Shown here: piece after piece, positions 27,126 to 44,019 of the stretch | How positions within the stretch are numbered: the first letter of the stretch is position 1 | How the letters are laid out: the number at the start of each line of letters is the position of its first letter | Assembly (NCBI GenBank): GCA_051888155.1 | Contig: JBJFAY010000153.1 | Location: 1-48,176, forward strand | Length of the DNA stretch: 48,176 nt | Direction: 5' to 3' | DNA from: Alphaproteobacteria bacterium | Lineage (GTDB): Bacteria > Pseudomonadota > Alphaproteobacteria > CAAGCB01 > CAG-977 | Program-made: the position numbers and the translations under genes | Notes under the pieces: generated by a model | Database searches by the model: none | The model's input: only the letters and a program-made list of their open reading frames with translations | Told to the model about the DNA's origin: nothing

Positions 27126-27461
27126 ATGACGCAATGTATCACTCCGAATACCAAACTGGAAAACACCGGTTTTGGCTACACTTTGTCGCTTATTGGCGGA
27201 AAATATAAAATGATAGTGCTATATTGGCTTGGTGAATTTGGTATCCTGCGTCATAATGCTTTACATAGGCTTATTGGCAAAATATCTTTTAAAATGCTTA
27301 GCACCACCTTAAAAGAATTGGAACGGGACGGGCTGATAAGTCGCAAAGTATATCCTGAACTTCCGCCCAAAGTAGAATACAGTTTAACGGAAAAAGGCAA
27401 ATCCCTTATTCCAATGCTCTTTGCGCTTTGCGAATGGGGCGATAACAACCGTCCTAAATAA
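27126..27461 (+). CDS. HxlR-family winged-helix transcriptional regulator
   Basis: LSLIGGKYKMIVLYWL...LRHNALHRLIGKISFKMLSTTLKELERDGLISRKVYPELPPKVEYSLTEKGKSL is the canonical HxlR layout. Confidence 0.88.
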   Translation: MTQCITPNTKLENTGFGYTLSLIGGKYKMIVLYWLGEFGILRHNALHRLIGKISFKMLSTTLKELERDGLISRKVYPELPPKVEYSLTEKGKSLIPMLFALCEWGDNNRPK

Positions 27462-27602
27462 CCCCGATGACCTAACGAGATTTCAACGTACTCAAGGTAT
27501 TGAAAAACAAAGATTTTTGCATAAATGAGTTCGTAAAAACTTCTCAAAACGTAATTTTCAAAAAACAAACTTTTGAACTTGCTGAGGGTCTGGGAAAATA
27601 AA

Positions 27603-27632
27603 GAAAAAGCAGCCCTTTTACCGGCTGCTGTT
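27603..27632 (-). terminator. Rho-independent terminator downstream of tRNA-Glu
   Basis: Minus strand reads cagcagcc / ggtaaaag / ggctgct followed by ttttctttatttt. Confidence 0.7.
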
Positions 27633-27637
27633 TGAAT

Positions 27638-27713
27638 TGGCGACCCTAACGGGACTTGAACCCGTGTTGACACCTTGAGAGGGTGCTGTCCTAACCAATT
27701 AGACGATAGGGTC
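27638..27713 (-). tRNA. tRNA-Glu (CUC)
   Basis: The 76-nt reverse complement folds as GACCCTA-TC-GTCT-AATTGGTTA-GGAC-A-GCACC-CTCTCAA-GGTGT-CAAC-ACGGG-TTCAAGT-CCCGT-TAGGGTC-G-CCA. Anticodon is CTC and CCA is encoded. Confidence 0.88.
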
Positions 27714-27730
27714 ATACAGTACTTTCTTTT

Positions 27731-28766: not shown

Positions 28767-29552
28767 ATGTTTTCTTTTCTTTATCGTGTTTTTTATGACA
28801 GGACGTTGTTCGGATCGTTTGTTAAAAACGGTAAAGGTTATGGTTTAAAACCGCTGTTCGTCTTGACATTGTTCGCAGCGTTTTGCCTGTCGGTCAGAAT
28901 TTTTTTAATCTTTTGTGCCGTAACGCCGCAGCTGGTTGATCAGATCGCGGAACAACTGCCTGAAATCATTATTGAAAAAGGAAAAATTGTTTCTCCGGAA
29001 AATTATGAATATTCTTATGTCCTTGCGGATCAAAATGTCTTTTTTGTCTTTGATACGACCGAAAAACCCCTGAAGTTGAAAGATTTGCCGAAAAACGGCA
29101 TTTATATTACTTCTGATGCGTTAATTTCCGTTAATGCGGATAGAATCAGGCGGATTCCTTTTGTTCAACTGCTGAATGGAAAAAACTTGATTCTTAATCA
29201 AACGAATATGCGGCAGTGGGGAAATGAAACAATTTCTTTGTTTCGCATTATATTCCCGCCGATTTTGTTCTTTTTCAGTATTCCGGGGGTGTTGAGTCTG
29301 TATTTTCTGCTGTGTGTGTTTTATGCGGTTATTTCATACTTTATGACGCATATTACCGCAGACCGTCTGCAGTGGGATCAAAGAATGCGGCTGGCGGCTT
29401 TATCCGTTATGCCGGCTTGTATATTAAATGCCGTCGGCTTTTTGTTGGGCTGTTCTTTCCGGCTTAGCAGAATAGAAATCTTTATTACGTTGATTTATAT
29501 GTTCTGTTTTTTAAAAGACGGCCGTCGCACTGCGGCTTCCGGCGCTGATTAA
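28767..29552 (+). CDS. DUF1189-like polytopic membrane protein, paralogue 2
   Basis: ATG 28767 with a GGAG RBS (the track start at 28743 is a TTG). MFSFLYRVFYDRTLF... and QLPEIIIEKGKIVSPENY parallel paralogue 1. Confidence 0.6.
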   Translation: MFSFLYRVFYDRTLFGSFVKNGKGYGLKPLFVLTLFAAFCLSVRIFLIFCAVTPQLVDQIAEQLPEIIIEKGKIVSPENYEYSYVLADQNVFFVFDTTEKPLKLKDLPKNGIYITSDALISVNADRIRRIPFVQLLNGKNLILNQTNMRQWGNETISLFRIIFPPILFFFSIPGVLSLYFLLCVFYAVISYFMTHITADRLQWDQRMRLAALSVMPACILNAVGFLLGCSFRLSRIEIFITLIYMFCFLKDGRRTAASGAD

Positions 29553-29983
29553 AACAGTTCGTCTACAAATAAATACAACGCTTCCGAAAAAGTCGGAAAA
29601 CTGCAGCTGTCTGAAAAATCCAAACGGTTAATAATATGGTATTTTTGATCAATGCTGTCATAGACGAATAATTCTTCCGCTGCGCGCCCTAACAGCAGCT
29701 TTCCCCGCATCGGAGCCGCTTGCTGAAATTCCAGATTGGCTTCAATCAGTCCCGGCAGCGTATAACCCAGCGCTTCTCTGTCATTAGCCCGCGTCCCGTA
29801 TAATTCCACGCCGTTCCAGCTCAGGCCGTCCGTTTGTTTTAATAACGCAATATAATCTACGGGAACAGGCGGAAAACGGTGCGAAGACAGCAAAGAGCTG
29901 ATAAAACGCAGAGATCGTTCGTCTACAGGGTCAAAAAAAGTACCGTTGTCTTTTCTTAAAGTATTTAAAATTCTTGTCAGCAT
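29549..29983 (-). CDS. SMI1/KNR4 (SUKH)-like protein, putative immunity protein
   Basis: 144 aa. FPPVPVDYIALLKQTDGLSWNGVELYG ... LLLGRAAEELFVYDSIDQKYHII follows the SUKH-1 pattern (lP.dY..fl...nG ... l..fg..g...y.yd). Starts 4 nt after the HNH-like gene. Confidence 0.5.
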   Translation of the reverse strand: MLTRILNTLRKDNGTFFDPVDERSLRFISSLLSSHRFPPVPVDYIALLKQTDGLSWNGVELYGTRANDREALGYTLPGLIEANLEFQQAAPMRGKLLLGRAAEELFVYDSIDQKYHIINRLDFSDSCSFPTFSEALYLFVDELF

Positions 29984-29987
29984 TTCC

Positions 29988-31094
29988 CTAACGCCCCAAA
30001 GAAGATTTCTGCGCGATCATTTCAAACGTACTTTCCAAGAATCCGGCATAAACGCTTCTGTCATGACGGCTGGTTCCTCCGGAAGAGATTTCAATTTCAC
30101 CCGGGAAATAAACTTTTCCTTTCGGTGCAGGCAAAAATAACTTGCGCGGTTTAAAATTCGGCTGCGCCAGAGTCTGCATATCAAGGAATCTGTGGATTTC
30201 CGTATGAAAAGGGTGCGTCTGAATCAAAACCAGATTTGAAAAACTGTTTGTTCCGCCATAATCAAACGGAATACGGATATGGATATTGAAATTTTCGGGC
30301 GCTTTTCCTTTTTTGACCAGTTTAATTGCTTCTTCCGTCATGCCGGCGGCCAATAATTCATTTACATGATGATAACCGACATACTTTAAAAAATCGCGCC
30401 GGGTTCTTTTAAAAGCCTTGCGTAATTCCAGCAGCCAAGCGGAATCCAAGGGAACAAATTCGGCTTCAATCAAATCCATATTAACCAGTCCGGTTTGCTG
30501 AAACTGCCATTCCCACAAAGCTTTGTCTTCCTGTCTGGGGTCGGACATGACAGGCGTCTGCGCCGTTTGCGGCTGTTGCGCGGCATAGGGCTGGGCATAA
30601 GACTGAGGAGCTTGAGGCACATATGACTGATAAGACTGTGATGCCTGCGATCCGTATGGATGAGGCGCATACGGCTGCTGCGGATAAGGCATATAAGGCT
30701 GCGGGTGTCCCGGATAAGGCTGAGTCGCATACGGCTGTTGCTGCGGATAAGGCATGTAAGGCTGCGTCGGATAGGGCGTTCCCGCATACCCCGGCGGCGC
30801 CTGAGGCGGCATAACGGGACGCTGCTGGTATGGCTGAGATACAGGAGACTGTTGCGGATAAGATGGCGGTACGGCAGAATACGACGACTGAGGTGCCGGA
30901 ATATCCAGCGGATCCGGATAAGCCGACGCCGGCGCTGTCGGCGGTAAAGTTCTGTAAGCGCGGGAATCTCTGTAAATCGGCACGGGACGAATTTCACGGC
31001 GCACAGGCGTCACACCTTGATTCTGTGCTTCTTCTGCGGCTTCACCCCGTGAACGTACGGGCGGCGGTGTTTTAGTTCCCGACCAATCCCACAT
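29988..31094 (-). CDS. Bipartite protein: Pro/Gln/Tyr-rich low-complexity N-terminal half plus C-terminal HNH/EndoVII-like domain (putative nuclease toxin/effector)
   Basis: 368 aa. GGGGGA RBS. Residues about 45-185 are PYPQQ-type low complexity. Residues 270-305 read NIHIRIPFDYGGTNSFSNLVLIQTHPFHTEIH, which fits H-x3-P-x3-GG-x5-NL-x2-L...H-x3-H. Confidence 0.5.
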   Translation of the reverse strand: MWDWSGTKTPPPVRSRGEAAEEAQNQGVTPVRREIRPVPIYRDSRAYRTLPPTAPASAYPDPLDIPAPQSSYSAVPPSYPQQSPVSQPYQQRPVMPPQAPPGYAGTPYPTQPYMPYPQQQPYATQPYPGHPQPYMPYPQQPYAPHPYGSQASQSYQSYVPQAPQSYAQPYAAQQPQTAQTPVMSDPRQEDKALWEWQFQQTGLVNMDLIEAEFVPLDSAWLLELRKAFKRTRRDFLKYVGYHHVNELLAAGMTEEAIKLVKKGKAPENFNIHIRIPFDYGGTNSFSNLVLIQTHPFHTEIHRFLDMQTLAQPNFKPRKLFLPAPKGKVYFPGEIEISSGGTSRHDRSVYAGFLESTFEMIAQKSSLGR

Positions 31095-31128: not shown

Positions 31129-33447
31129 CTAGAACTTTTCATCAATAAAGTCGTCGTAATTTTCGTTATCGTATTCTCCTTCTTCCCCCTCATCTTCGTC
31201 GTCGTCGTAGCCTTCTTCATCTTCGTCGAAATCATCAATATCATATTCCTGATATTCTTTGATAAGTTCGTCCGTACTATCTTCTTCTTCCTCTTCCGCG
31301 ATATCTATCAATCCCTGCAATGCATTGACGTCCGTATCTTCACGCTGTGCGACAACCCAGTATGGCACGAACGGGGAAGGCGGAATATTACATTTTCTTG
31401 TCATTTCTTTGTCTAAAAACCAACGCGGCGCATCTGCCATAATCGGGCGGTTCATGAAACCTTGCATTAAAACGATTTGCTGCGTTGAAGGCAAAGACAA
31501 CATTTGCGAAGCGCCGATTACGGCCGTTCCCTGTAAAGAACGCGAAACGTTGGCCGAAAAAGGAGTCGCCTGTTTCGACCAACCTTCTGTTCTTGATTTC
31601 GAAGCGATTTCAACCGTTTTTGTCCCGATCATTTTTTCAAAACGCTGTGCGGTCTGTTCGTTGTTCTGTGACAAAATAATTTTAGCCGCCGTCGTGGAAA
31701 TAATCGTTTCCAAGTCGTCTTTTCCGTATTGGCCGGAAATTTGCCCCAAATCTTGCCCGATTAACAGATAAGACACTTTTTGACCACGCCCGACCGCCGG
31801 TCCGTCTTTTACTGCCCCCAATTTGGGCATTTGCGGAAATTCGTCGAGTACAAATAAAGTCGGAAACGGTCCGGTCATTGATCCGTCGCCTTGTTTGAAA
31901 TTCGGCGGATTAGCAATCAGGAAGTTACTCATCAATTCAACGAACGTGCCCGTAATAATATTCAAAGCGCGGGCGTCAACCTGGTTCACGGACAAATAAA
32001 TCGCAATGGATTTCATTTCTCCGGTAATCGGATCTTTCATACCGCGCAAATCTTTAAAAATAAAGTCGCTCATTTTTGTTCTGGAACGTACGGCAGAGTT
32101 TTTGAAAATACCGATACCGGTCAGCGCCGTTGATAAAATAGATCCGCGTTCTTTGTCCGGCGTTCCCGACAGTTGGTTTAATTCAACAACGGCACGGTGG
32201 GCGTAGCCGTATCGTTTACATTCCGCAACGGCTTGGTCCAGCATGTCGCGCATCGGGTCGGCCAGTGCGGCCATTTGATCGCCTTCTTCTGTCTTGCGTT
32301 TGATTTCCGCCGCCATTTGCATTTGCGCTTCGGTCAGCCAGTCCAAAATCATGGCAATACACGGTTCTGCTCCCACCCATGATTCCGGCAGCATTTCCCA
32401 TGTGCCGATCGGAACATAGTTGTTTAAATCCAGTGTGCCGTTGCGCAGGTGATCCAAAGCTTCGGCCGCGTCGGCGTCCGTCATGTCCATATAATATCCT
32501 TCAAGGACTTCGCGGTCTTTATCGTCCAGCTTTCCTTCATAAAGCTTTCCAATGAAGTAGTCATTAGCTCTGGCGCGTTCGCATTTACCGACAACGAAAT
32601 GAATAAAGCCGGTTAATGCATTTCGGCCGGTCTTTGCCCAGTGCGGGTCTGCCCCGCCTTTAGGTTCTTCGACCAAAACGTTGACCATGGAATCGACATA
32701 CATATCGCGTGCCGGGCCGAACGGAGGCAGACATGTACCGGACAACATATTCCAACTGGGATAATAAATTCCTTTTTCCGGTTCGTCTTCAGCCCCCCAG
32801 TTAATGACGAAAACAGGGCCGATAGTCTGTCTGTAACCGCTTGTTTTATAACATAATTCAGGCTTCGGGTCGTTTACGATGATGCTGATATTGTTTGATT
32901 CGAAAATTGTAGGCATAACGACGCCGACCGTTTTACCTGTTCCCGGAGGCGCCAGCACCAAAACGGACAATGTTTCCGGCAACCGCAACAACTTGCCGTG
33001 CCAGCGCCCCAAAACGACGATAAAACCTCTGAACAATCCCATTTTTTCAATATCTTTTTTAGTGGCAATGCGTCCTGAGCCATGAATGGTTGATAACCAG
33101 GAATGCGGATTTGTCACCAGTCCCGTTGTCAGAATAGCAAAAAAAGAAAAGAACGGGATTATCGGCAGCCAGAAATAAAAAGGCAGAGAACTATGCGCTT
33201 TAAAAGCTTTCATCAGCCATTTCCAATAAATATTCAGCAGGTACATATCCGTGGGATCGAAGCATTTTTTTGCAAAACGCCAAACCTGCAGCATATTATC
33301 CTGACTGATTCCCCGAGGAATCAGATTCGTCAGTGCAAAAGCAATAATCGCAAGCAGATAAGATACAACAAGAGCAAGCATGACCGTAACGACCACCCAT
33401 TGTATTGCGGCATCTCTTTCTGCCCATTCCTCTCCTTTTCTTGCCAT
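31129..33447 (-). CDS. virD4: Type IV secretion coupling protein (VirD4/TraG family) with highly acidic C-terminal tail
   Basis: 772 aa. N-terminal TM segments. HGSGRIATKKDIEKMGL, Walker A VLVLAPPGTGKTVGVVMPT, IVNDPKPE, Walker B LFVLDEFPQMPKL, LLIGQDLGQISGQYG. The last ~60 residues are almost entirely Asp/Glu/Tyr. Confidence 0.85.
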   Translation of the reverse strand: MARKGEEWAERDAAIQWVVVTVMLALVVSYLLAIIAFALTNLIPRGISQDNMLQVWRFAKKCFDPTDMYLLNIYWKWLMKAFKAHSSLPFYFWLPIIPFFSFFAILTTGLVTNPHSWLSTIHGSGRIATKKDIEKMGLFRGFIVVLGRWHGKLLRLPETLSVLVLAPPGTGKTVGVVMPTIFESNNISIIVNDPKPELCYKTSGYRQTIGPVFVINWGAEDEPEKGIYYPSWNMLSGTCLPPFGPARDMYVDSMVNVLVEEPKGGADPHWAKTGRNALTGFIHFVVGKCERARANDYFIGKLYEGKLDDKDREVLEGYYMDMTDADAAEALDHLRNGTLDLNNYVPIGTWEMLPESWVGAEPCIAMILDWLTEAQMQMAAEIKRKTEEGDQMAALADPMRDMLDQAVAECKRYGYAHRAVVELNQLSGTPDKERGSILSTALTGIGIFKNSAVRSRTKMSDFIFKDLRGMKDPITGEMKSIAIYLSVNQVDARALNIITGTFVELMSNFLIANPPNFKQGDGSMTGPFPTLFVLDEFPQMPKLGAVKDGPAVGRGQKVSYLLIGQDLGQISGQYGKDDLETIISTTAAKIILSQNNEQTAQRFEKMIGTKTVEIASKSRTEGWSKQATPFSANVSRSLQGTAVIGASQMLSLPSTQQIVLMQGFMNRPIMADAPRWFLDKEMTRKCNIPPSPFVPYWVVAQREDTDVNALQGLIDIAEEEEEDSTDELIKEYQEYDIDDFDEDEEGYDDDEDEGEEGEYDNENYDDFIDEKF

Positions 33448-33579
33448 TTAGGGGGAGCACTCCTTAAAACATTACAAAAAAACCTTATTTAAGTATAAGA
33501 GAAATAAGAACAAAAATCTACATTCTCTCATCATTTTTTCATGAGAATGCCACAGAAAAGTAAAAAAAAGATAAGTAAA

Positions 33580-34617
33580 TCAGTTTAATACGCTGGAAAC
33601 GCTGTGATACAGACTGTCATCAGGAGGCGAAACAGCGGAAACGGCACTTGGCAGCGCCGTAATTTCATCAGGGCCGCCCTCTTCGTGGCGGCAAACGATA
33701 ACATTCAGTCCGTTCCAAACCTCGAACATATCTTCCGCGTTAATGATCGTTCCCTGACGAATAATAACCATCGCTTTGATTTCCATGCCGTTAGCCGCTC
33801 CGCTGAGCATGGGACCCAAAGCGTCACGTGCGTTCAAAATGACGCGAACCGGAGAAATACGGTGATTACTTTCGGAAAACCATAACGGTTCTTCATCATT
33901 AAATCTTTCTTCGTCCGCCAGCCAGTCTCCGCTTTCCGAATCAATTAAACATAACAGAATGTGACTGGCGGAAACAGCGACAAAGTCGATTTTCTTTCCC
34001 GCGATTTTAGCATCGGAAATCAGCCTGTAACCGGCCGAACGCAAAACGTCCATAATGGAATTGCCCGCAATGGAAGATTCTGCCGAACTACGTTGAGCGG
34101 CGGGAGCCGTCTCGTGTGAACGTTCAACAACCGGAGCAGCCGCTGCAGCCGGCAAAGTTTCCTTTTCTTTTTCCGGCGCTTTTTCCGGGTGTTTAATGCG
34201 GCCTGATCCGGCTCTGACCGCAGGAGGACGGGTTTGTTTATAAGACTTCTTTTTAGTAACTTTCGGTCTGGCGGCGTTCTTTTCTTTTTTACGTTCTTTT
34301 GATTTGCTTACTATAAATCTGATCGGGAACAACAAGATAATTTTAAACCATTTGATCCATGGAACCGCACATAAAACGGCCCACCCCGTAAACCAAAGCG
34401 GCAACATTGCAAACAACGCAATGACAAACAGCCATTCCCGTACGGACTGGATTACCCAGCCGTTTTGCCATTCATTCCAGATATAAATCCAATGTACTTT
34501 GGACATCGGATTGAATCCCCACATGGCAATCATCAGGCGCTGAAACCAAAAGAAATATCCGATTGTCCAGACAAATAAAATGAAAAAAATTCGTGAAACG
34601 GCAAAGATTATTTTCAC
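33580..34617 (-). CDS. Hypothetical membrane protein with NERD-like C-terminal domain, paralogue A
   Basis: 345 aa. GTG start at 34617 with a GGGAGA RBS. N-terminal TM module with HWIYIWNEWQNGWVI, a Lys-rich linker, and C-terminal KIDFVAVSASHILLCLIDSESGDW...ISPV. Confidence 0.6.
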   Translation of the reverse strand: MKIIFAVSRIFFILFVWTIGYFFWFQRLMIAMWGFNPMSKVHWIYIWNEWQNGWVIQSVREWLFVIALFAMLPLWFTGWAVLCAVPWIKWFKIILLFPIRFIVSKSKERKKEKNAARPKVTKKKSYKQTRPPAVRAGSGRIKHPEKAPEKEKETLPAAAAAPVVERSHETAPAAQRSSAESSIAGNSIMDVLRSAGYRLISDAKIAGKKIDFVAVSASHILLCLIDSESGDWLADEERFNDEEPLWFSESNHRISPVRVILNARDALGPMLSGAANGMEIKAMVIIRQGTIINAEDMFEVWNGLNVIVCRHEEGGPDEITALPSAVSAVSPPDDSLYHSVSSVLN

Positions 34618-34638
34618 CGGTCAATTCTCCCAAATAAC

Positions 34639-35742
34639 CTATGCGCCATTTTCCGTTTCCATTAAATCGAGAATTGCCACGGCTACAGCGTCGTTCAAAG
34701 CCTGTGAAGACGCCGGCTGGGATTTTATATATTCAATTAAGGCATGCGTGTCTGGCAAAGAAGCCGTTTGACACGACCCCATACGTAAAACGGAAATGTC
34801 CCAAGTTTCCAAATATTTCAACAGTTCGTCGGGATTTGTAACATTGCCGTGATCTAAAATCATGCAGCAGTTGACATCTAAACCGGAATACTGCGGCATT
34901 TTTTCCGCAAAATATTTTTGTAATACGGCTTTTGCTTCGATCAAAGGCCGCAGCGGTGAGGGAATCGGCGCCGTTTCTGTTTTCCATACGGGCGGTTCCG
35001 CAGCTTCATCTATTTCCCAGGAACGCCCGGCTGCCGGCCCTTCGCACAGCAAAAAGACTCCTTCCCGCGTAATGGCAAAAGTATTGACCGAAAAATTTTT
35101 AATTTTCATTTGACGCAAGATAAAAATCTTCTCGGTTTCCAAAGATTGAACCAATTTTTCCCATAAGTCGAAGCGGGCGACGGCTTCATCTTCTTTGGAC
35201 AGTATTTTGCCCGTTGAGGTGGACGGGGCGGCGGTGCCGGTTTTCGCAGCGGCGGATTGTGCCGTTATAGCATGCTGTACGCCGGCTTTTTTGCCGCGCA
35301 GCTGATCAATATGCTGTAATTTTTCGGCAGAAATTTTAATTACTTTTTCCGGCTCTTTTTTCTTAGACAGTACTTTTTGTTTGTCGGCGGGACCGACTGC
35401 CGCGGCCAGCGACTGCGCCTGAAGCCGTTCTTTTTTCTTTTTTTCAAGATAGGTCAGCGGCAGGCGGAAAAATTTCAGCCAAGGAAACACATACACCGTG
35501 AACCATGTCAACAGAAATCCGGGGATCAATAACAGAACGGCAATAAAAAACAACACTTCTTTGGGTTTGTGAATTACCCAGCCACCCCGCCATTTGTTCC
35601 AGATATGCGTCCAATGGCGTTCGGAAATCAGGTCGAAATTCCAGAAGAACAGAAAAATTCCGCGGGCGATAACATAAAAAAGAACGGCGCCGACAACCGC
35701 AGAAAAAAGAAGACGGATAAAATGTATTTTCCCTTTTTTCAT
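34639..35742 (-). CDS. Hypothetical membrane protein with NERD-like C-terminal domain, paralogue B
   Basis: ATG 35742 with an AGGA RBS (the track start at 35766 is a TTG). HWTHIWNKWRGGWVI motif, a Lys-rich linker, and VNTFAITREGVFLLCEGPAAGRSWEI. Same architecture as 33580-34617. Confidence 0.6.
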   Translation of the reverse strand: MKKGKIHFIRLLFSAVVGAVLFYVIARGIFLFFWNFDLISERHWTHIWNKWRGGWVIHKPKEVLFFIAVLLLIPGFLLTWFTVYVFPWLKFFRLPLTYLEKKKKERLQAQSLAAAVGPADKQKVLSKKKEPEKVIKISAEKLQHIDQLRGKKAGVQHAITAQSAAAKTGTAAPSTSTGKILSKEDEAVARFDLWEKLVQSLETEKIFILRQMKIKNFSVNTFAITREGVFLLCEGPAAGRSWEIDEAAEPPVWKTETAPIPSPLRPLIEAKAVLQKYFAEKMPQYSGLDVNCCMILDHGNVTNPDELLKYLETWDISVLRMGSCQTASLPDTHALIEYIKSQPASSQALNDAVAVAILDLMETENGA

Positions 35743-35801
35743 GTGACGATCCTGTAATTTGAACAATTAAATATAGAATATAAAACTATTCGGGCAAATG
35801 T

Positions 35802-35832
35802 CAAAAAGAAAGGGAGCCGCAAGCTCCCTTTC
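35802..35832 (-). terminator. Rho-independent terminator after the Lys/Asp-rich protein gene
   Basis: Minus strand reads gaaagggagc / ttgcg / gctccctttc followed by tttttg. This splits the minus-strand block into at least two transcripts. Confidence 0.7.
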
Positions 35833-35846
35833 TTCAGGGAAAAAAA

Positions 35847-36977
35847 TTATCTTCCCGCATTTTGTTTTTTGCGTGCCGGAACCATGGAATTTCCCTGCTG
35901 GCGAGATTGCGGCCGGCTTTTTTTCCGGGCGATATTTTTCATCTGGGCTTTCAGATTAGAAAACATTTTTAGGTTGGCCTTCTGTTTCAGCTTTTTTACG
36001 CCTTTTTGATGGGCTTGTTTAACCTTATTTGTAATTTTCTTTTTCTGATCTCTGGCTGCCAGACCGGCTGCCTTTAAACCGATTCTCGCTTTCTGGACGG
36101 CTTTTTGCCCCTTTGTTTTTTTCTTGATGTCTCCGTCAACAATTTTATTGTTAACGCCTGTTTCTTTTTGCATGGCCGCCAAGGCTTTTCTGTCGCCGAC
36201 CAATTCAGCTCTTGCTTTGCGTCCTTCCGGTGATTTTGCATAACCGGGGATAGTGGCGACATTCTTACGGTAATCCGCCTCACGCTGTAAAGATTCTACC
36301 GTCATCTGATCATACGCCTGCTGGTTTTTACCCAAAGCGGAATTGTCATAATTCCGGTTAGCCATATTTTTTTTGGCTTTATCTGCCAGATCCTGAGCCT
36401 TTTGCGCTTTAAGATCGTTTCTTTCCTGCTGAGAAGTCTTTGCGGGCTTTTCTTTATCTTTTCCGGACTTGTCTTTGTTGTCCTTATCTTTTCCCGGTTT
36501 ATCTTTATCGGCCTTATCTTTATCTTTACCGTCTTTGTTTTTTGTCTTTTTTTTGTCTTTATCGTCGCCGAGTTTTTGTTTTTCTTTTTTCTTGTTGATG
36601 AATTCAACACCCTTATTAAGTCCTTTGTCGATGTAGTAACCGACAAATTCCAAATTGCCTAACATCCAATTCCGCAAATCGTTCTTAAGAAATTCAATCA
36701 ACCATTTTGCGGCGTCATCTTCATTGTTTGTCTCTAGCCATTTATAATCCGGTCCCTTTTCTTTGTCTTTTTTTTCATGGGCTTTGGCATGGAAAGAGCC
36801 GACTTTCCCCTGCTGCTGTTCCTGTTGCTGTTCAGCCGTATATTCGCCGGCTTTCTCAGGAGTGGCAGTAAAATTTCCTTGTTCTGCCGTATTCTCACCA
36901 GTCTTCTGAGGCGTGGCAGTAAAATTTCCTTGTTCAGCTGAAGTTTTTTCCTGTTCTGTTTTTTCAATTTCTGCCAT
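35847..36977 (-). CDS. Lys/Asp-rich low-complexity protein with basic C-terminus (hypothetical; candidate secreted substrate)
   Basis: 376 aa. AAGGAGA RBS. Two 17-aa repeats AEQGNFTATP(Q/E)K(T/A)GE(N/Y)T, a KDKDK-type tract (about 36438-36590), and a C-terminal ~60 residues rich in Lys/Arg. Confidence 0.6.
   Translation of the reverse strand: MAEIEKTEQEKTSAEQGNFTATPQKTGENTAEQGNFTATPEKAGEYTAEQQQEQQQGKVGSFHAKAHEKKDKEKGPDYKWLETNNEDDAAKWLIEFLKNDLRNWMLGNLEFVGYYIDKGLNKGVEFINKKKEKQKLGDDKDKKKTKNKDGKDKDKADKDKPGKDKDNKDKSGKDKEKPAKTSQQERNDLKAQKAQDLADKAKKNMANRNYDNSALGKNQQAYDQMTVESLQREADYRKNVATIPGYAKSPEGRKARAELVGDRKALAAMQKETGVNNKIVDGDIKKKTKGQKAVQKARIGLKAAGLAARDQKKKITNKVKQAHQKGVKKLKQKANLKMFSNLKAQMKNIARKKSRPQSRQQGNSMVPARKKQNAGR
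36828..36938. repeat. 51-nt (17-aa) tandem repeat inside the Lys/Asp-rich protein gene
   Basis: ggcagtaaaatttccttgttc... recurs with a 51-nt period. Protein repeat is AEQGNFTATPxKxGExT x2. Confidence 0.75.
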
Positions 36978-37084
36978 TGAAGTTCTCCTTCAGAATTTGA
37001 TCAATATACTTACTAAAGTTAAGCATACGGAAAAAAATTTTTTTTGTCCAGAGCGTCATTAAAAATTCATAAAACGGCTTTTTG

Positions 37085-38173
37085 TTATACCTTTAAATTC
37101 TTTAAAAAAGAAGCAAGCCTTTTGTTAACGGCGATCGCGTCTTTTGGAGACGGTTTAACCAGCCCGAAGAATTTTTTCGGCAAACGCTCCAGCTGAATCG
37201 GTGAAAAGAAAAGCGGGTTTGTGATCAGAGTTTCATAGGCTTTGTCCGGATCTTTTTTGGCCAGCGTGAAGTAATTATTGATCAGCTTTTTTGCATCAAC
37301 GGGAAAATGCTTGCGTTCAATGGCGTCAATGAAGTTTTGCTTCATTTCACGCTCTTCTTCTTCCATTCCTTTGATGTCGTCAACGATCTGGTCTGATTCG
37401 TTTTCGATGTCAAGTACGTTCAGTTTTTCCTGAATGATCTGCATATCTACCATAACAGTCAGATAAGCAATCAGAATTTGCTGTGCGGTTGACAGTGTTT
37501 CTTGATTTTCGATGCGTTTCAGTTCCGACTGAATAATTTGTTCCAGCGGAGCCTTATTGGCCATGATTCTTTCCATGCCGGCGACAAAAGGCGCCATTTC
37601 GACAAAATCGTCTAATATGGCGGCCAGCAGATCATTATCAATTTCGTCTAACAGTTCGCCCGCCTGCAAAGTATCTTCAGGCAGCTCAATCATCATCTGG
37701 GGGAAATTATATCCTTCCTCTTCGGCGATTCTCTGCGTATAAATCCGTGTATAAACATATAAAAGAAAAAGTTTATCTGTAACGTTTTCACGGTTTTCAA
37801 TGGCTTCCAGAATATTGTCCGGCAACGTATAGCTCAGCGCTTTGATTTCTACGCCATTTACAATTTGGCCGGCGAAAGATTTCCGCTTCGACGGCGAATC
37901 GGAAGGAATGGCCGGCTGAATATCAGGGCGGACTTGTTGCTGAACGGGTGGTTTTGCGGGAACTTTAACCAGAGTCGGCTGTTCCGGCGCAGGCGTCGCC
38001 GGCCGAGGCGCCGAGATCGGCCGTTTAACAGGGACTTTGACCAAAGTTGGCTGTCCTGCTGCCGGTGCGGCAGGCTGGGGCGCTGAGATCGGCCGTTTGA
38101 CAAGAACTTTTACTTTCTTGACGAGAACCTTTTTTACAACGGGCTGAGGAGATGTCGGTTGCTGCGAATCCAT
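37085..38173 (-). CDS. Hypothetical protein with Pro-rich repeated N-terminus and ~260-aa acidic helical C-terminal domain
   Basis: 362 aa. Two 24-aa repeats KRPISAP(Q/R)PA(A/T)PA(A/P)(G/E)QPTLVKVP(V/A). No family recognised for the C-terminal domain. Confidence 0.6.
   Translation of the reverse strand: MDSQQPTSPQPVVKKVLVKKVKVLVKRPISAPQPAAPAAGQPTLVKVPVKRPISAPRPATPAPEQPTLVKVPAKPPVQQQVRPDIQPAIPSDSPSKRKSFAGQIVNGVEIKALSYTLPDNILEAIENRENVTDKLFLLYVYTRIYTQRIAEEEGYNFPQMMIELPEDTLQAGELLDEIDNDLLAAILDDFVEMAPFVAGMERIMANKAPLEQIIQSELKRIENQETLSTAQQILIAYLTVMVDMQIIQEKLNVLDIENESDQIVDDIKGMEEEEREMKQNFIDAIERKHFPVDAKKLINNYFTLAKKDPDKAYETLITNPLFFSPIQLERLPKKFFGLVKPSPKDAIAVNKRLASFLKNLKV
37955..38098. repeat. 72-nt (24-aa) tandem repeat inside the Pro-rich protein gene
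   Basis: gagatcggccgttt(a/g)ac... recurs with a 72-nt period. Confidence 0.75.
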
Positions 38174-38414
38174 ATCTTTCTATTTTTGTTACGGTTTGTA
38201 TCAATTTAAAATAATATGTTGAGGCCAAAAGGCTTTTCTGTCAACATTATAAAAAAAATCACATCGATGCGATAGTGTTTTGATCAAAAATCAAAAAAGT
38301 GTCATATTTCTTTGTATGATTTTGTTCTATCATGAATAATAAGGTTTTTGCAGATTGACTGTTGCAATTGTATTCTGTCTGTAAATATAGGCTTTACCTG
38401 AAAGGAAGTTCGGC
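38174..38414. promoter_or_regulatory. Divergent control region between the two T4SS-related gene blocks
   Basis: 241-bp AT-rich spacer between divergent starts 38173 (minus) and 38415 (plus). Contains inverted repeats TGTTGA-N18-TCAACA (38217-38246) and TTGAT-caaaa-ATCAA (38280-38294). Confidence 0.4.
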
Positions 38415-40595
38415 ATGAAGAAAAATAAGGGTGAAAATAAAATCGTATTATGTATGCTCTTGCTTGCATGTCTTTTAAGTGTCATGCCTGTTGTTCCTTC
38501 TCAGGCGGGCTGGTTGGATTTCGGTTGGCAAACGGAGGAGTTTACAAAGGATGAAAATAAACCGGCTGATGAACAATGCAATCTGTTAAGAGATGTAGAA
38601 GAGGCTAAAAATAAGGGGAAGTGGTGGAAGACGCCATTGGAAACGGCTCTCAAGGCCTCGCTTTCGGTTGGTAAAACCGTATCTGAGAAGGCTGCGCCGG
38701 GTGCTCAAAAGTTGATGTTTGTCGGTGCGGGATTGTGGCTGGCGGTATTTACGTTAAAGGTTGTCGGCAGTATGGTGGAATCCGATCCGAGGGAGAATTT
38801 GACAAAGGTCGGCGGCATGATGCTGAAAGTGGGGTTTGCTGCCGCCTGTTTGTCTAGCATAGGGGGGGGGGAGAAGCTATATAGCAGCTATTCCTTTTTT
38901 GATGTGGCGATTGCTTCAGTCGTTGAAGCTGGTGCGGGGTTTGTTGACACAAGCGACATTACCGGAGTAGACGGCGCGGTTAAAATGGGTAATGTAAAAA
39001 TTGGCGGTGGCTTAGATGCTGTTGAAAAGGTTTTGATAGACATGGCTGAGGAAACCCATACAATTATCGCCGATGTTATAGGAAGGGGAAGATTCCTGGG
39101 GTGTATCGGGGATATTCATAAACTCAGCTTAAGTGTAGCCGGTGATGTAACGTTCCCGGATCCCAAGGTTTGGATGTCGTCCTGTGTTATTGTTGTGGGG
39201 GCATACTTCTTTTTATTTTTATTCCCGTTCTATTTAATTGAAGTGTGTGTGCGTCTGGGAATTGTGGTCGCTTTATCTCCTTTGTTTGTCGTTGCCTGGG
39301 TTTTTGATGTGACAAGAGAGTTTACTAAAAAAGGAGTTCAGGCCTTATTGCACGTGGCGTTTACGTTTATGATGATTAAAATAATCGTTCTTGTCGCAAC
39401 TAAACTGTTAATGGGCGGAGCCGGTTTGGATAAGCTGAAGACGGGCGGTTTAGATGAAAAAAAACAAATAGTGTGTACTTTCAGATGGGGCTATTTAGGG
39501 GACGATGACGTCTGTGAAGGCGTAGAAAAAGGCGAAACAAACAATATGTTTATTTATTTGGCCTGCATTGTCTATGGTTGGCTGTTGTTGTCAAAAGGCA
39601 ATGAACTGGCAAATTATTACAGTAATACAAATTTCTCTGCAGATTCGTCTTTTGCAGCGGCAAGAAATGCAGGGCAAATGGTTCATAAGGCGGCTCAGAC
39701 AGGGGTAAATAAAACTATTAACGCGGCCGGTGCGGTAAAAGACCGGATCCAGACTCATAAAGACCGTGCGGCGGCGCGCACATATGAAAAAGACCAGCGG
39801 GCTCGCGCGGCGGCGGCAAACGGCGGTCCGGCGTATAATCCGTCTGCTAAGCAGCTGAAAAAAGTTGAAGCGGCTAAGAAACGTCTGCAAAGCGAACGTG
39901 TCGGGGCTTTAAACAGCGACGGTACGGAAAATGGTCAAAAGATGTCTAAACTGCTTGAAAACGGTAAAGCCAGAACGGCAATGCGCGGTCTTGAAAAAAT
40001 TCATAACGCTACTGTCGGTCGTTTAGCGGATAAAGTAGGGATTTCTAAATTTGGTCAAAAGCTTTCATCGAAAGCGTCGTATCAGGCAAAGAACGGCAAT
40101 TTCTTTGAAAGACAGGCCGGAAAAATTGGAAACAGGCTCGGTAAGGATATTCAAAATATAGGAAGCCATGACAAATATAAAAATATGGGCAGCTCTTACA
40201 GTGAACGTAGTGCGGAGCAGCTGCAAAATCTGAAATCTGTCGCGCCGACAGGGATAGCGGATGTCAACGAACGAGATGTTAGCTTGGCTAAACAGAGAAT
40301 GGCTAACATGCCTCCGCCAACTACAGAGCAGGAAAGGAAACAGCAATTCTATAATCAAGCAAAATTGTTGCATCAGGAAGACGTGCTTGATTACAATAAA
40401 AAAGTAGCGGCAGATCCTAATTATGCCAATTCTGTTGCGGGTCAGAAAGCAATGCAAAAAATGACTCAGGATAACTATGATTTGCAGCAATATAAGAATG
40501 ATAACGGGGTAAACGATGATCTTTTCAAGAGTAAAACTGCTAAAGAAAAATGGAATACAGTTAAAGGAAAGGTCAAATCTGCATTTGGAGGCTGA
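38415..40595 (+). CDS. virB6: VirB6/TrbL-family T4SS inner-membrane protein, paralogue 1, with ~330-aa hydrophilic C-terminal extension
   Basis: 726 aa. Signal peptide. AQKLMFVGAGLWLAVFTLKVVG and VVALSPLFVVAWVFDVTREFTKKGVQALL parallel A. tumefaciens VirB6 as I remember it (LLAIGPLILVGYIFDRTRDIAAKWIGQL). Multiple TM segments. Lys/Asn/Gln/Ala-rich tail. Confidence 0.75.
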   Translation: MKKNKGENKIVLCMLLLACLLSVMPVVPSQAGWLDFGWQTEEFTKDENKPADEQCNLLRDVEEAKNKGKWWKTPLETALKASLSVGKTVSEKAAPGAQKLMFVGAGLWLAVFTLKVVGSMVESDPRENLTKVGGMMLKVGFAAACLSSIGGGEKLYSSYSFFDVAIASVVEAGAGFVDTSDITGVDGAVKMGNVKIGGGLDAVEKVLIDMAEETHTIIADVIGRGRFLGCIGDIHKLSLSVAGDVTFPDPKVWMSSCVIVVGAYFFLFLFPFYLIEVCVRLGIVVALSPLFVVAWVFDVTREFTKKGVQALLHVAFTFMMIKIIVLVATKLLMGGAGLDKLKTGGLDEKKQIVCTFRWGYLGDDDVCEGVEKGETNNMFIYLACIVYGWLLLSKGNELANYYSNTNFSADSSFAAARNAGQMVHKAAQTGVNKTINAAGAVKDRIQTHKDRAAARTYEKDQRARAAAANGGPAYNPSAKQLKKVEAAKKRLQSERVGALNSDGTENGQKMSKLLENGKARTAMRGLEKIHNATVGRLADKVGISKFGQKLSSKASYQAKNGNFFERQAGKIGNRLGKDIQNIGSHDKYKNMGSSYSERSAEQLQNLKSVAPTGIADVNERDVSLAKQRMANMPPPTTEQERKQQFYNQAKLLHQEDVLDYNKKVAADPNYANSVAGQKAMQKMTQDNYDLQQYKNDNGVNDDLFKSKTAKEKWNTVKGKVKSAFGG
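38862..38871. repeat. G(10) homopolymer inside virB6 paralogue 1
   Basis: ata-GGGGGGGGGG-agaag encodes ...SIGGGEK.... Confidence 0.9.
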
Positions 40596-40689
40596 CTGAT
40601 AGATTGAAGGAAACGGGAAAAATTAAGATAATGCTTTAAATATCTTCGTTACAATAAAACACGGTTTTACAAAGTTTAGGAATAGGCAA

Positions 40690-42297
40690 ATGTTAAGACA
40701 TAGAATAACATTTTTAAAAAAGAGCGATATCGCACGTTTTGTGTGCGTACTATTCCTTTGCCTTTGTTTAGGAATGCTGTGCGGTTGTGAAGATACTGCT
40801 CCTAATTCACATTCGCAGGGGGAACTGGCGGTTGCTGCAGAAAAGGAAACGCTGAACTGCTGGACATGTTCGCTTTTTAAATTAGGGTTTGGTGTTGCGA
40901 ACAGTTTGGCAACGAGCGTGGTTAAATCTGTCGCCGGCAGTGCGCTTTCCCTGCTGGCGGTCGGTTACGGATTATGGCTGGCTGTATATATTTTAAAGCA
41001 GGTTTCTTCAATGCAGGCGCCGGATCCCGGAGCTTTTTGGAAAGGACTGGCCGTACAGACGTTTTTTGTTACGCTGGGAGCCGGAATGTTGCGGGATTTA
41101 TCCGGAGAGGGAGAATCTTCCTCGTCTGTTCTGGAAATGATCGTCAAACCTATTTTTTCCGGTTTTGTTGATGTCGGATTATTGGTTGTCGGCGGCTTTG
41201 GGGATCTTCCCTGTTCTGCAGGAGGGGATCCCGGCGTCGGTATGGAGTGTCTGGTTGAGGCATTGCAGCAAAAACTGAATGTCGGAGTCGCTTTTGCTTA
41301 TCTTAACGCAACGACCGGGCCGACAATTTTCAGTATTATTCTGGGGGTCATTGTTTATTGTTTTTTCATCTACATGATGCTTTATTTCCCGCTGTTGTTG
41401 CTGGATTGTGTGTTCAGGTATTGCATTGTTCTTGCAATGTTGCCTTTAAGTGTGACGGCCTATTGCTTTAAATGTACGCGAGATTTTGCGACGCAAACCG
41501 TAAAGCTTTTAGTGGAAATCGGTTTGGGTATTACCGGTATGTGCGTTTTTATTGCGGTCGTTGTTGAAGTTGTTCGAGAATATATTGATACTTTTTTACC
41601 ATACATTCAAAATCCGACTTCTCTTTTAAGCGATCCGATGATGCTTGATAAAGCTATACAGGGACCGGGCATGACAGGACTGATGTTTGTGTTAACTTTC
41701 CTATGCATTTTCGGCGGCGTGGTTCTTGAATTGATGGAAAATTTCTCTCAAGGTATGGGTGGACTGGGAAGTACGGTCAAAGAAACCATTGGCGCTTTCA
41801 AGGGGGGGGCCGCTATGGCTAAACAGTTAGGCAAGTTTGCGGTCAACCGGAGAGCCAGAAAAAATGACGCCAAAGCTAAAAAGACAAAACAAGCTTTGGA
41901 AGCGAAAAAAGCCAGCGGAAAAACACTGTCGAAAGATGAACAAAAAGCTCTGGATAAGGCGAACGGTCGTTTAATGTTTCGCGGTTATTTGGCTCAGGAT
42001 AAAAACGGTCACATGTCGCAGGACAAAGGAGCCAGTCTGCATAAAACAAAAGCTTATGACAACTTGGGCAAAGGCGGTGTTAGAAATGCTTTGAAAAATT
42101 TGTCGGAAGATTGGAACAGCGATGTAATGGGCAATGCTTCGCGTCATGATCACAGCCATAACAAAGTTTCCGAAGAAGGTTTTACAGGGGATTTGAAAAA
42201 GGATAATTTGGTAAATGATATGTATGGAGATAAGTCTCTGAGGCAGCGCATGGGAGACGGCCTGAAAAAGGGAATGAAAAATCTTGTAGGCGATTAG
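40690..42297 (+). CDS. virB6: VirB6/TrbL-family protein, paralogue 2 (lipoprotein-like signal), with ~170-aa basic C-terminal extension
   Basis: 535 aa. LGMLCGC lipobox-like signal. CWTCSLFKLGF motif. LLAVGYGLWLAVYILKQV. VLAMLPLSVTAYCFKCTRDFATQTVKLL. Confidence 0.72.
   Translation: MLRHRITFLKKSDIARFVCVLFLCLCLGMLCGCEDTAPNSHSQGELAVAAEKETLNCWTCSLFKLGFGVANSLATSVVKSVAGSALSLLAVGYGLWLAVYILKQVSSMQAPDPGAFWKGLAVQTFFVTLGAGMLRDLSGEGESSSSVLEMIVKPIFSGFVDVGLLVVGGFGDLPCSAGGDPGVGMECLVEALQQKLNVGVAFAYLNATTGPTIFSIILGVIVYCFFIYMMLYFPLLLLDCVFRYCIVLAMLPLSVTAYCFKCTRDFATQTVKLLVEIGLGITGMCVFIAVVVEVVREYIDTFLPYIQNPTSLLSDPMMLDKAIQGPGMTGLMFVLTFLCIFGGVVLELMENFSQGMGGLGSTVKETIGAFKGGAAMAKQLGKFAVNRRARKNDAKAKKTKQALEAKKASGKTLSKDEQKALDKANGRLMFRGYLAQDKNGHMSQDKGASLHKTKAYDNLGKGGVRNALKNLSEDWNSDVMGNASRHDHSHNKVSEEGFTGDLKKDNLVNDMYGDKSLRQRMGDGLKKGMKNLVGD
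41802..41809. repeat. G(8) homopolymer inside virB6 paralogue 2
   Basis: ttcaa-GGGGGGGG-ccgct encodes ...FKGGAA.... Confidence 0.9.
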
Positions 42298-42359
42298 GAG
42301 GCGCTATTTAGACTGGTTAAAAAAAACGTATTCTTTGGCGAGGGGAAAAGGAGCAAAAA

Positions 42360-42575
42360 ATGTCCAAGTTAAAACAATATATTGTTTTTGGCGGGTTATT
42401 GTTTCTTTTTCAAATGGATTCTGTAAAACGAATTTTTCAGTCGCCGTCTTTTTTGAATACGGTTTTGGGGGGTATCGGGATTTTATTGGTTATAGCGGTG
42501 ATTATAACAATTTCTGCTCAAAAACGTCAAAAAAAGCAGAAAGAAAATGAAGACGATAGGGCTTCAATATTATAA
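42360..42575 (+). CDS. Small 2-TM membrane protein (hypothetical)
   Basis: 71 aa. AAAGGAG RBS. Two hydrophobic segments (IVFGGLLFLF and VLGGIGILLVIAVIITI) and a basic/acidic tail. Confidence 0.55.
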   Translation: MSKLKQYIVFGGLLFLFQMDSVKRIFQSPSFLNTVLGGIGILLVIAVIITISAQKRQKKQKENEDDRASIL

Positions 42576-42591
42576 AGGAAGGTTTTGGCAA

Positions 42592-44019
42592 ATGACGAAA
42601 CATGTTACGTTAAAACGATTAGTGATCGGAGTGCTGCTGTTTTGCGGCGTGTTTGCCTATACTTCCATTCATTCCGCTCATGCTTTCAGCATTTATGATA
42701 AGAAAATGGAAGACGTTTGCGATTCATGGTCTCAGAATATGCAGGACTATCAAGGGCAGGAACATTGCTGGACATGTCAGATTTTCGTACTGCTTTTTGA
42801 TGCTGCCAACAAAGCGGCCGGACAAATTAACAATGCCTTATCGCCTCCAATTATGAAAGCTGTTGTTACTCTTTGTTCGTTATGGCTGGCCATTCACACG
42901 CTGATTTTTTTCAGCGATGTGGGGAGCGCTCCTAATTTAATGGCATTTTTAACAAAAATCGGGGGTATGATGATCCGGGTCGGGTTCGGTTATGCCCTCT
43001 TGGCCGGCGGGGCTCAGCTGGCTTTTGATTATGTTATCAATCCTGTTTTGACAGACGGGGCAAAATTGGCGACAACTGTTTTGTCAACGACGGGACTTTC
43101 CCCGGGGTGTGAATTTACTTCCAGCGGCGGCGGTTCGCCGACAAGCGGGCCGATGGGGCAAGAGGTACGCGAATCTTTGAAATGTATGATTGAAAAAATT
43201 GCTTCCGGCATGGCGCGCAGTCAGTCAATCGCACAAGGGTTGCGTTGCGGTGCAATGTTTTACGATTTCGGATTCCTTAATCCGTTCCCGCATCCGGGCA
43301 TGTGGATTGTAGGGGCAACTTTTGGGTGCTTTTTCTGGTTTATTTCTTTCCTGTTCCCGTTGGTTATGCTGGACGTTATTTTCCGGATCGGATTAATGGC
43401 CGGTATGCTGCCGTTGTTTGTCGCGGCTTGGATTTTCCCGATTACGGCCTCATATGCAAAAAAAGCATGGGATATTTTCTTGCAGTCTTGTCTTGTTTTC
43501 GTCGTAACGGGGCTGATTGTTTGTATACTTGTGGCTCTGGTTGACCAGTCTTGGGGAGCCGGCGATCAGACGATCATAAATGCTTTTCAGCAGAAAATGG
43601 AAGCTAACCAATATACAGATGCATGGGACGAGCTGTTTTCCGGCGGAGTCGGCAGAGGATTGGTAAATTTATTCCTGGTGCTGTGCGTTTGCTTCTGGGG
43701 CGTAGGCATTGCTTCTAAATCAGACAAAGTGGCAAATGAGTATGTGGGAGAAGGAAAATATCCGGACAATTGCGCGGTTAAGGCCATTGAAGCAATAATC
43801 AGTTTTATTTTTGATGTGATTATGGCGGTTATTACAATTCTTACTTTTGGCGCGACGTCTTGTCTGTATCTTTTCAAACTCGGTAAATATATGTCCGACA
43901 GTGCGAGAAAGCTTCAGGAAATTATCAGGCATCTCAGAAGGATAAAAGAAAAAGTACAAAAAATTCAGCAAAAAATGCAAAAGCTTCAGAAGGTGGCTTT
44001 CCATCAACGGGATAAATAA
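42592..44019 (+). CDS. virB6: VirB6/TrbL-family protein, paralogue 3
   Basis: ATG 42592 (MTKHVTLKRLVIGVLLFCGVFAYTSIHSAHA signal) follows an AAGGAAGG RBS. CWTCQIFVLLFD motif. TLCSLWLAIHTLIFF. MAGMLPLFVAAWIFPITASYAKKAWDIFL. The track start at 42547 overlaps the small ORF. Confidence 0.72.
   Translation: MTKHVTLKRLVIGVLLFCGVFAYTSIHSAHAFSIYDKKMEDVCDSWSQNMQDYQGQEHCWTCQIFVLLFDAANKAAGQINNALSPPIMKAVVTLCSLWLAIHTLIFFSDVGSAPNLMAFLTKIGGMMIRVGFGYALLAGGAQLAFDYVINPVLTDGAKLATTVLSTTGLSPGCEFTSSGGGSPTSGPMGQEVRESLKCMIEKIASGMARSQSIAQGLRCGAMFYDFGFLNPFPHPGMWIVGATFGCFFWFISFLFPLVMLDVIFRIGLMAGMLPLFVAAWIFPITASYAKKAWDIFLQSCLVFVVTGLIVCILVALVDQSWGAGDQTIINAFQQKMEANQYTDAWDELFSGGVGRGLVNLFLVLCVCFWGVGIASKSDKVANEYVGEGKYPDNCAVKAIEAIISFIFDVIMAVITILTFGATSCLYLFKLGKYMSDSARKLQEIIRHLRRIKEKVQKIQQKMQKLQKVAFHQRDK

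Follow-up and report, generated by a model that had tools for sequence, protein, structure and literature searches.

The window analysed here, a stretch of 48,176 nucleotides of contig JBJFAY010000153.1 from an alphaproteobacterium (assembly GCA_051888155.1), carries directly upstream of a virD4 gene two adjacent genes encoding membrane proteins, hereafter A and B, which may be partners of the VirD4 coupling protein. The reading that we favour, to which we give an even chance, is that A and B serve VirD4 as auxiliary subunits in the inner membrane, as part of a chromosomal, rvh-type type IV secretion system (T4SS), with a role like that of DotM but a different ancestry, and that their nuclease-derived NERD fold serves mainly for binding. 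We found no published description of the pair, which stands as a variant beside the known accessory proteins of type IV coupling proteins (T4CPs) and the known NERD proteins; likewise, we found no paper linking NERD with type IV secretion, and none on RF32-type gut Alphaproteobacteria and type IV secretion.

The initial annotation, made from the letters of the window, had described two adjacent open reading frames (ORFs) of 345 residues (A) and 367 residues (B, from the ATG at 35742), paralogous to each other, sharing a Trp-rich motif and lying directly 5' of virD4. The coordinates are exact, and the Trp-rich motifs of both proteins (Table 1) and the strings quoted from their C-termini are correct to the letter. 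A BLASTP comparison of A with B gives an E-value of 1e-28 and 22% identity across 333 residues, which identifies the two as paralogues over their full length, far beyond chance. The next gene 3' of A, on the same strand and 132 bp off, does encode a VirD4/TraG-type coupling protein, with a match of 4.8e-56 to the Pfam family T4SS-DNA_transf and further matches to NCBIfam VirD4 models.

The proximity to virD4 extends well beyond the window. More than 887 relatives of A were retrieved by a word-indexed search, all of them from metagenomes or metagenome-assembled genomes and one carrying the name 'NERD domain-containing protein [Alphaproteobacteria bacterium]'. In the GTDB species collection, at least 391 genomes encode a relative, and the best 80 belong nearly without exception to uncultured Alphaproteobacteria from gut, rumen or faeces (e.g. 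'Acetobacter sp. CAG:977', Ca. Scatocola and UBA isolates), with a few environmental ones. Gene order, a lack of which beside T4CP genes elsewhere would have refuted the initial annotation by its own terms, was counted over 82 non-redundant loci, 79 of which are assessable for the upstream neighbour. A VirD4 homologue lies directly 3' of A in 81 of the 82, the exception being a contig that ends 81 bp past A, and the gap between the two genes has a median of 24 bp and is at most 200 bp in 76 of the 81. Directly 5' of A, 77 of the 79 assessable loci carry a paralogue bearing the same membrane hairpin, which is either full-length and B-like (339–387 residues, 29 loci) or short (153–171 residues, 48 loci), the short form being made of the hairpin and a short basic helix. 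The conserved unit is a hairpin paralogue, A and VirD4, in that order; it is usually followed by counterparts of the 368- and 144-residue genes of the window and, in most loci, the gene before it encodes a protein with the same C-terminus as the 362-residue protein of the window. In four loci (L020:1780–2730, L022:7104–8057, L025:7099–8052 and L029:7087–8052), an ORF of 316–321 residues stands between A and virD4; its product begins with a membrane region, includes a segment 32–40% identical to residues ~247–370 of VirD4, and looks like a partial duplicate of the N-terminal half of the coupling protein.

The block is also tied to a T4SS by its other neighbours, as VirB6/TrbL-like paralogues lie beside it and VirB6-like genes adjoin it both in the window and in close relatives. 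In locus L004, where A is 57% identical to that of the window, two VirB8 genes, a VirB9/CagX gene and a gene for a VirB10 of 2205 residues are found 4–10 kb away amid housekeeping genes, so that the block is connected with a true T4SS of the rvh-like kind, located on the chromosome. This VirB10 (L004:1–2086) has a TrbI domain and a very large extension with faint RHS-repeat and Bflower matches. The window itself is chromosomal and also contains polA, a flagellin gene, a P-type ATPase gene and tRNA genes.

The four-part architecture proposed for the two proteins (transmembrane (TM) segments around the Trp-rich motif, a Lys-rich linker, a spacer and a globular C-terminal domain) could be followed along A by a topology check combining hydropathy with structure prediction. 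The hydropathy profile displays two clear TM cores, at residues ~8–30 and ~60–84. The AlphaFold2 model of A, built with 70 homologues, comprises four helices within residues 1–114 (predicted local distance difference test (pLDDT) >90), a disordered tether (residues 115–186) and a compact domain (residues 187–345). The helices follow one another as TM1 (~8–30), a short Trp-rich helix (40–51), TM2 (~60–84) and helix 87–114. The latter, which would be the third beside TM1 and TM2, is hydrophobic and then basic; it looks amphipathic rather than membrane-spanning, because it contains K89, K92 and R100. Within the Trp-rich motif, W50 is invariant in an alignment of 70 orthologues, and conservation reaches 90% or more at H42, W43, G53 and W54. 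The tether holds a conserved short motif, KKKSYKQTRP (34225–34254), and its net charge lies between about +13 and +15. The isoelectric point is ~10.4 for the N-terminal part plus the tether and 4.6 for the C-terminal domain. According to the positive-inside rule, the topology is most likely N-in/C-in, in which case the Trp-rich loop would face the periplasm at the membrane interface and the NERD-like domain would be cytoplasmic. No Pfam family matches the profile of the hairpin domain, and a common origin with the TM domain of VirD4 was considered and ruled out (hhalign probability of 1%). The tree of the 115-residue hairpin supports only the clades of the short paralogues (99/95) and of the window-type B proteins (99/98) and gives no resolved deep nodes for dating the duplication behind A, B and the short form.

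The C-terminal domain is, on the combined evidence of profiles and models, probably a divergent NERD/PD-(D/E)xK fold, as the initial annotation had suggested from strand order and residue spacing. With the full-length sequence as query, neither A nor B matches any Pfam family significantly. The Pfam NERD family (PF08378) is matched by 15 of 70 orthologues at E ≤ 0.01, and three of them (P0081, 31.7 bits; P0087, 28.7 bits; P0065, 25.7 bits) score above the gathering score of 22.1 bits, with matches spanning positions 9–17 to 110–111 of the 111 positions of the profile. The domain of the window's A taken alone reaches 17.4 bits (E = 0.0066), i.e. less than the gathering score, and B does not match the NERD profile. 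When the A domain was folded alone with AlphaFold2 from 64 orthologues, the model had a pLDDT of 91.9 and a predicted template modelling score of 0.87, and its elements succeed one another as α-β-β-β, a hairpin and α-β-α-β. Foldseek searches of the Protein Data Bank (PDB) with both models returned PD-(D/E)xK nucleases as nearly all top matches, namely NucS/EndoMS, AF1548 (TM-score 0.45), Cdn1, VC1899, Hjc, the R2 RLE domain, Bax1 and HamA, none with E < 1e-3 and all with a TM-score of at most 0.45. A profile search of PDB sequences gave low-complexity noise only.

Two sets of residues bear on whether such a domain would bind or cut. The first comprises the canonical active-site positions, all of which are acidic in A: D190, D211, D226 and E228, forming a D...D-x-E pattern. 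Among 64 virD4-linked orthologues, position 190 is D or E in 60, D211 is present in 61, D226 in all 64 and E228 in 62, and the position that separates D226 from E228 is occupied by K in 39 sequences and by S in 18. The lysine of (D/E)-x-K is found in none of the 64, so that the catalytic D...(D/E)-x-K motif is missing; the remark in the initial annotation that no canonical E-x-K is evident was right, A having D226-S-E228 there. B carries N, P and A where A has D211, D226 and E228. The second set is what we call the WLADEE hairpin, which directly follows strand 3 and is the most conserved element of A (GDWLADEERFNDEEPLWFSES.HR.SPVR). Of its 29 positions, about 20 show no variation among the 64 orthologues, the pLDDT of the model being low there. 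It is degenerate in B. The hairpin stays near letter-identical across unrelated protein architectures in which the canonical nuclease positions are often lost, and this favours a binding or sensing function over classical phosphodiester cleavage. Since the virD4-linked clade retains the acidic tetrad, its members may nonetheless have a metal-dependent activity in which a Glu replaces the Lys, as in BamHI, where a Glu stands in place of the Lys. WLADEE-type domains are found in proteins of 1513 and 1565 residues, where a TPR region is followed by the domain, Roc-COR-A/B and TIR, in a protein of 1802 residues devoid of Pfam matches, and in soluble proteins with two tandem copies; the proteins concerned are P0306 and P0311, and also P0355, P0345, P0323 and P0349.

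Both genes appear to be maintained. The ratio of non-synonymous to synonymous substitution rates (Nei–Gojobori, seven close relatives) is 0.07–0.11 for A and for B, compared to 0.02–0.045 for VirD4, and in both proteins the tethers evolve fastest and the two structured domains are conserved. These values indicate that A and B are under purifying selection and that B is functional rather than a copy in decay, even if it diverges faster than A at larger distances.

Altogether, these data suggest the following arrangement. A and B would each insert into the inner membrane as an N-in/C-in two-helix hairpin with its Trp-rich loop at the periplasmic interface. The two hairpins would pair with each other, which we propose because A regularly has a second hairpin-bearing paralogue alongside, and would probably lie next to the TM domain of VirD4. 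On the cytoplasmic side, the basic juxtamembrane helix and the tether with its KKKSYKxxRP motif would hold the acidic NERD-fold domain near the VirD4 hexamer, where this domain would mainly bind substrates, adaptors or nucleic acid by means of the invariant WLADEE hairpin. B, or the short paralogue in its place, would be a degenerate structural partner, and the resulting type IV coupling complex would be analogous in role, not homologous, to DotL–DotM. We infer a binding rather than a cutting role because no member has E-x-K, because B has lost the acidic site and because the WLADEE hairpin is the only element conserved family-wide.

Two further types of data speak for this arrangement, each with a limit that counts against it. 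In one public RNA-seq run ('whole organism metagenome'), near-identical contigs cover 29.0–38.35 kb of the window, and single contigs cross the virD4/A (33431–33784, 0 mismatches), A/B (34325–34733) and B/upstream gene (35168–36885) boundaries; no contig was found at 38352–39000, at the start of the divergent VirB6-like gene. This pattern fits co-transcription of the B-A-virD4 block, with the reservation that the contigs are strandless and could contain DNA. Across 77 loci, the net charge of the A tether tends to rise as that of the final 60 VirD4 residues falls (Spearman −0.75), a figure calculated with no phylogenetic correction and confounded by phylogeny: the coefficient is −0.60 within the window's clade, where the medians are −33 for the VirD4 tail and +15 for the tether, and −0.22, not significant, within the long-tether clade. 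We take it as a hint of co-evolution and as a lead only. The net charge of the VirD4 tail (31129–31311 in the window) ranges from −18 to −44 over 60 residues across the window's clade, and the tail is moderately acidic in the long-tether clade. In a further, small clade (L067, L076, L081 and L083), the VirD4 tail is neutral and the tether only weakly charged; the upstream hairpin paralogue is undetectable in both of its assessable loci (L076 and L081).

Further objections come from the active-site positions and from the distant members of the family. The retention of D/E190, D211, D226 and E228 would exceed the needs of a purely binding role. Moreover, a HMMER scan of 1.84 billion representative sequences yielded 528 proteins at E ≤ 1e-3. 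More distant members have the same architecture, are again labelled Alphaproteobacteria and lie elsewhere: two (L087:8001–9086 and L091:7001–8284) directly follow atpI-B-E-F'-F and two (L092:5070–6377 and L095:636–1898) directly precede accB-accC, and the flanks fetched for these four do not contain virD4; the members of L088 and L089 are isolated and not beside virD4 either. Because these members sit away from virD4, the family does not seem intrinsically linked to coupling proteins, and the synteny described above could be the gene order of one clade. The membrane partnership with the coupling protein put forward in the initial annotation is thus backed by a near-universal synteny with virD4, which breaks down in the most distant members; the interaction itself we infer.

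The distant members are also the mainstay of the alternative that fares best, namely that A belongs to a family of general alphaproteobacterial inner-membrane proteins unrelated to secretion, which might for instance tether the nucleoid or an envelope process to the membrane, a role proposed for SmdA (TM plus NERD) of S. aureus, and whose place in the virD4 operon is incidental, be it a clade-specific accident of gene order or a regulatory convenience. Such a general membrane function is a possibility given that the housekeeping synteny of distant members is conserved per subfamily (atp in L087 and L091, accB-accC in L092 and L095), and the staphylococcal protein SmdA offers a precedent of a membrane NERD protein that is not a nuclease (PMC9040797). 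We consider it unlikely, as the linkage to virD4 is preserved over A identities of 30% to 87%, with gaps often of 5–37 bp, and the duplicated partner is kept throughout. In addition, genomes of this kind usually have their T4SS genes dispersed, and non-adjacency therefore says little and leaves a role in secretion unrefuted. Locus L090 is instructive in this respect: its A-like gene has kept a neighbour related to the 362-residue protein, and VirB11- and VirB10-like genes lie 4 kb off, virD4 not being adjacent. The neighbour in question (L090:77–721 and 1569–2684 for the pair) precedes the A-like gene and encodes 214 residues, 38% identical to the C-terminus of the 362-residue protein (37085–38173), so that the link between both families predates the adjacency to virD4.

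The next alternative, somewhat harder to sustain and also unlikely in our view, takes the acidic tetrad at face value. A would be a metal-dependent nuclease that is catalytically competent and tethered to the membrane, with a D...D-x-E site like that of BamHI; it would process DNA where the coupling protein sits, with B or the short paralogue as an inactive partner. It could substitute for a relaxase, by comparison with the MOBC relaxases, in DNA export or uptake, or degrade DNA at the entrance of the channel. The kinship of the C-terminal domain with NERD and PD-(D/E)xK proteins points in this direction, as do the acidic residues at all four canonical positions in the virD4-linked clade and the fact that none of the 27 window ORFs scanned matches a Pfam relaxase family; the MOBC relaxases show that a PD-(D/E)xK fold is able to serve a T4CP (PMC12857230). 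Arguing against it, the (D/E)xK lysine is missing family-wide, the canonical positions are lost in other WLADEE-domain proteins, a tblastn search of 72,556 plasmids with A gave no homologue, and neither an oriT nor a relaxosome accessory gene was identified. Furthermore, rvh-type systems are known as effector translocators. We regard as improbable the most specific version of this idea, in which A is a working tethered NERD nuclease that, together with its dead paralogue, replaces the relaxase and nicks or processes chromosomal or incoming DNA at the VirD4 hexamer; if it were true, this vertically inherited T4SS of gut Alphaproteobacteria would be a DNA export or uptake machine with a previously unknown DNA-processing module.

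Finally, it is very improbable that A and B form, with the HNH-like and SUKH-like genes that follow virD4, a conflict module (a toxin, an effector or a defence sensor) outside the secretion machine: that gene pair and the WLADEE domain found inside TPR-Roc-COR-TIR proteins resembling immune sensors bring it to mind, but A, B and their orthologues match nothing in PADLOC or PHROGs, the genes are strongly conserved core genes with vertical inheritance and not a patchy distribution, and the stable membrane anchor speaks against a secreted effector.

If the auxiliary-subunit reading is correct, A and B would define with VirD4 a new type of coupling complex, a strictly conserved membrane pair with a nuclease-derived domain, in hundreds of gut and rumen species. 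Good descriptions of coupling complexes, in which a T4CP joins with auxiliary subunits in the membrane, exist only for the type IVB system of Legionella, and the VirB/D4-type coupling protein is usually regarded as acting alone or with relaxosome proteins. The pair would also, for the first time, set the NERD domain, which is poorly understood, in a functional context, in a large, uncultured, host-associated group of Alphaproteobacteria whose biology is nearly unknown.

The features of the window on which this analysis relies are collected in Table 1. The ATG at 35742 is the likelier start of B compared to the upstream TTG because a promoter-like site (35804–35777) precedes it; this site is the sole noteworthy item of terminator and promoter scans that were overall at chance level. 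The 368-residue protein encoded after virD4 (29988–31094) has a Pro/Gln-rich N-terminus and a C-terminus that reads as HNH-like, the motif having been spotted by eye only (IHIRIPFDYGGTNSFSNLVLIQTHPFHTEIH); its last ~180 residues are conserved in most related loci. Further along, a tRNA-Glu(CTC) gene (27638–27713, minus strand) lies inside the mechanically listed ORF 27251–27715, the 5' end of which is therefore probably non-coding.

Table 1. Features of the window discussed in the text, with the basis of each assignment where it applies
Feature	Position	Strand	Remarks
ORF A	33580–34617	minus	345 residues; GTG start preceded by a GGGAG Shine-Dalgarno sequence
A, Trp-rich membrane domain (residues 1–114)	34276–34617	minus	hydropathy and AlphaFold2
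A, Trp-rich motif HWIYIWNEWQNGWVI	34450–34494	minus	residues 42–56
A, disordered net-basic tether (residues 115–186)	34060–34275	minus	fastest-evolving part of A
A, acidic NERD-like/PD-(D/E)xK-fold domain (residues 187–345)	33583–34059	minus	predicted from profile and model
A, WLADEE hairpin GDWLADEERFNDEEPLWFSESNHRISPVR	33844–33930	minus	residues 230–258; alignment
ORF B	34639–35766	minus	375 residues from TTG; 367 if ATG at 35742
B, Trp-rich motif HWTHIWNKWRGGWVI	35572–35616	minus	sequence
Promoter-like site TTGACA-16-TATATT	35777–35804	minus	just 5' of ORF B; 11/12 consensus matches only
VirD4/TraG-type coupling protein	31129–33447	minus	772 residues; extremely acidic C-terminal tail
Two genes after virD4 in most related loci	29549–31094	minus	368 and 144 residues; synteny
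Two co-oriented genes 5' of B	35847–38173	minus	376 and 362 residues
VirB6/TrbL-like paralogues	38415–44019	plus	divergent from the block; weak matches

Compared to NERD (PF08378), the C-terminal domain of the A family shares a G..W...(S/N)P spacing after strand 3, the AlphaFold2 model of A follows the element order α-β-β-β-α-β, and in several orthologues the domain exceeds the Pfam threshold. It differs by the absence of the (D/E)xK lysine (D-S-E in A and D-K-E in most orthologues), by the invariant acidic WLADEE hairpin, which marks the A family as a distinct subfamily, by its fusion through a long tether to a new Trp-rich membrane hairpin, and by the fact that the window's A falls under the Pfam threshold and B is undetectable. 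The resemblance to SmdA of S. aureus is one of description and not of sequence comparison: SmdA has an N-terminal membrane anchor and a cytoplasmic, partial NERD domain without several canonical residues, a domain that matters for function without known nuclease activity (PMC9040797). In contrast to A and B, SmdA, a cell-division factor of Firmicutes encoded by a monocistronic gene, has a single TM helix, lacks a Trp-rich hairpin and has no link to a T4SS.

T4CPs are known to assemble with auxiliary proteins into coupling complexes, the best-shown example being DotL-DotM-DotN-DotY-DotZ, and the label 'D4Aux' has been proposed for such partners (PMC12857230). A fits this functional class in that it is encoded and conserved with the T4CP in the loci counted here (81 of 82), which fails in the distant subfamilies. 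Like A and B, DotM (IcmP) is membrane-anchored, with a cytoplasmic domain and a gene beside that of the coupling ATPase, and a role in substrate recruitment is plausible for A and B as well. The fold of DotM is unlike theirs, however, and their system is of type IVA (VirB/D4, rvh-like) rather than IVB. The initial annotation had seen no sequence similarity between A or B and DotM, in agreement with our searches, in which no DotM or other T4SS family of Pfam or NCBIfam matches either protein at E ≤ 0.1; nor does any T4SS, defence or phage family in Pfam, NCBIfam, PADLOC and PHROGs. The MOBC relaxases (TraX of pAD1 and MobC of CloDF13) are related to PD-(D/E)xK proteins and, as proposed for A, combine this fold with work alongside the coupling protein (PMC12857230). 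They are soluble, plasmid-borne and oriT-specific, whereas A and B lack a plasmid homologue, a known oriT and a catalytic Lys.

The rvhD4 gene of Rickettsia comes after rvhB11, and we know of no NERD-like membrane gene described beside it. What the system studied here shares with the rvh T4SS of Rickettsiales is a chromosomal location, several VirB6-like paralogues, a duplicated VirB8 and a scatter of its genes over separate islands.

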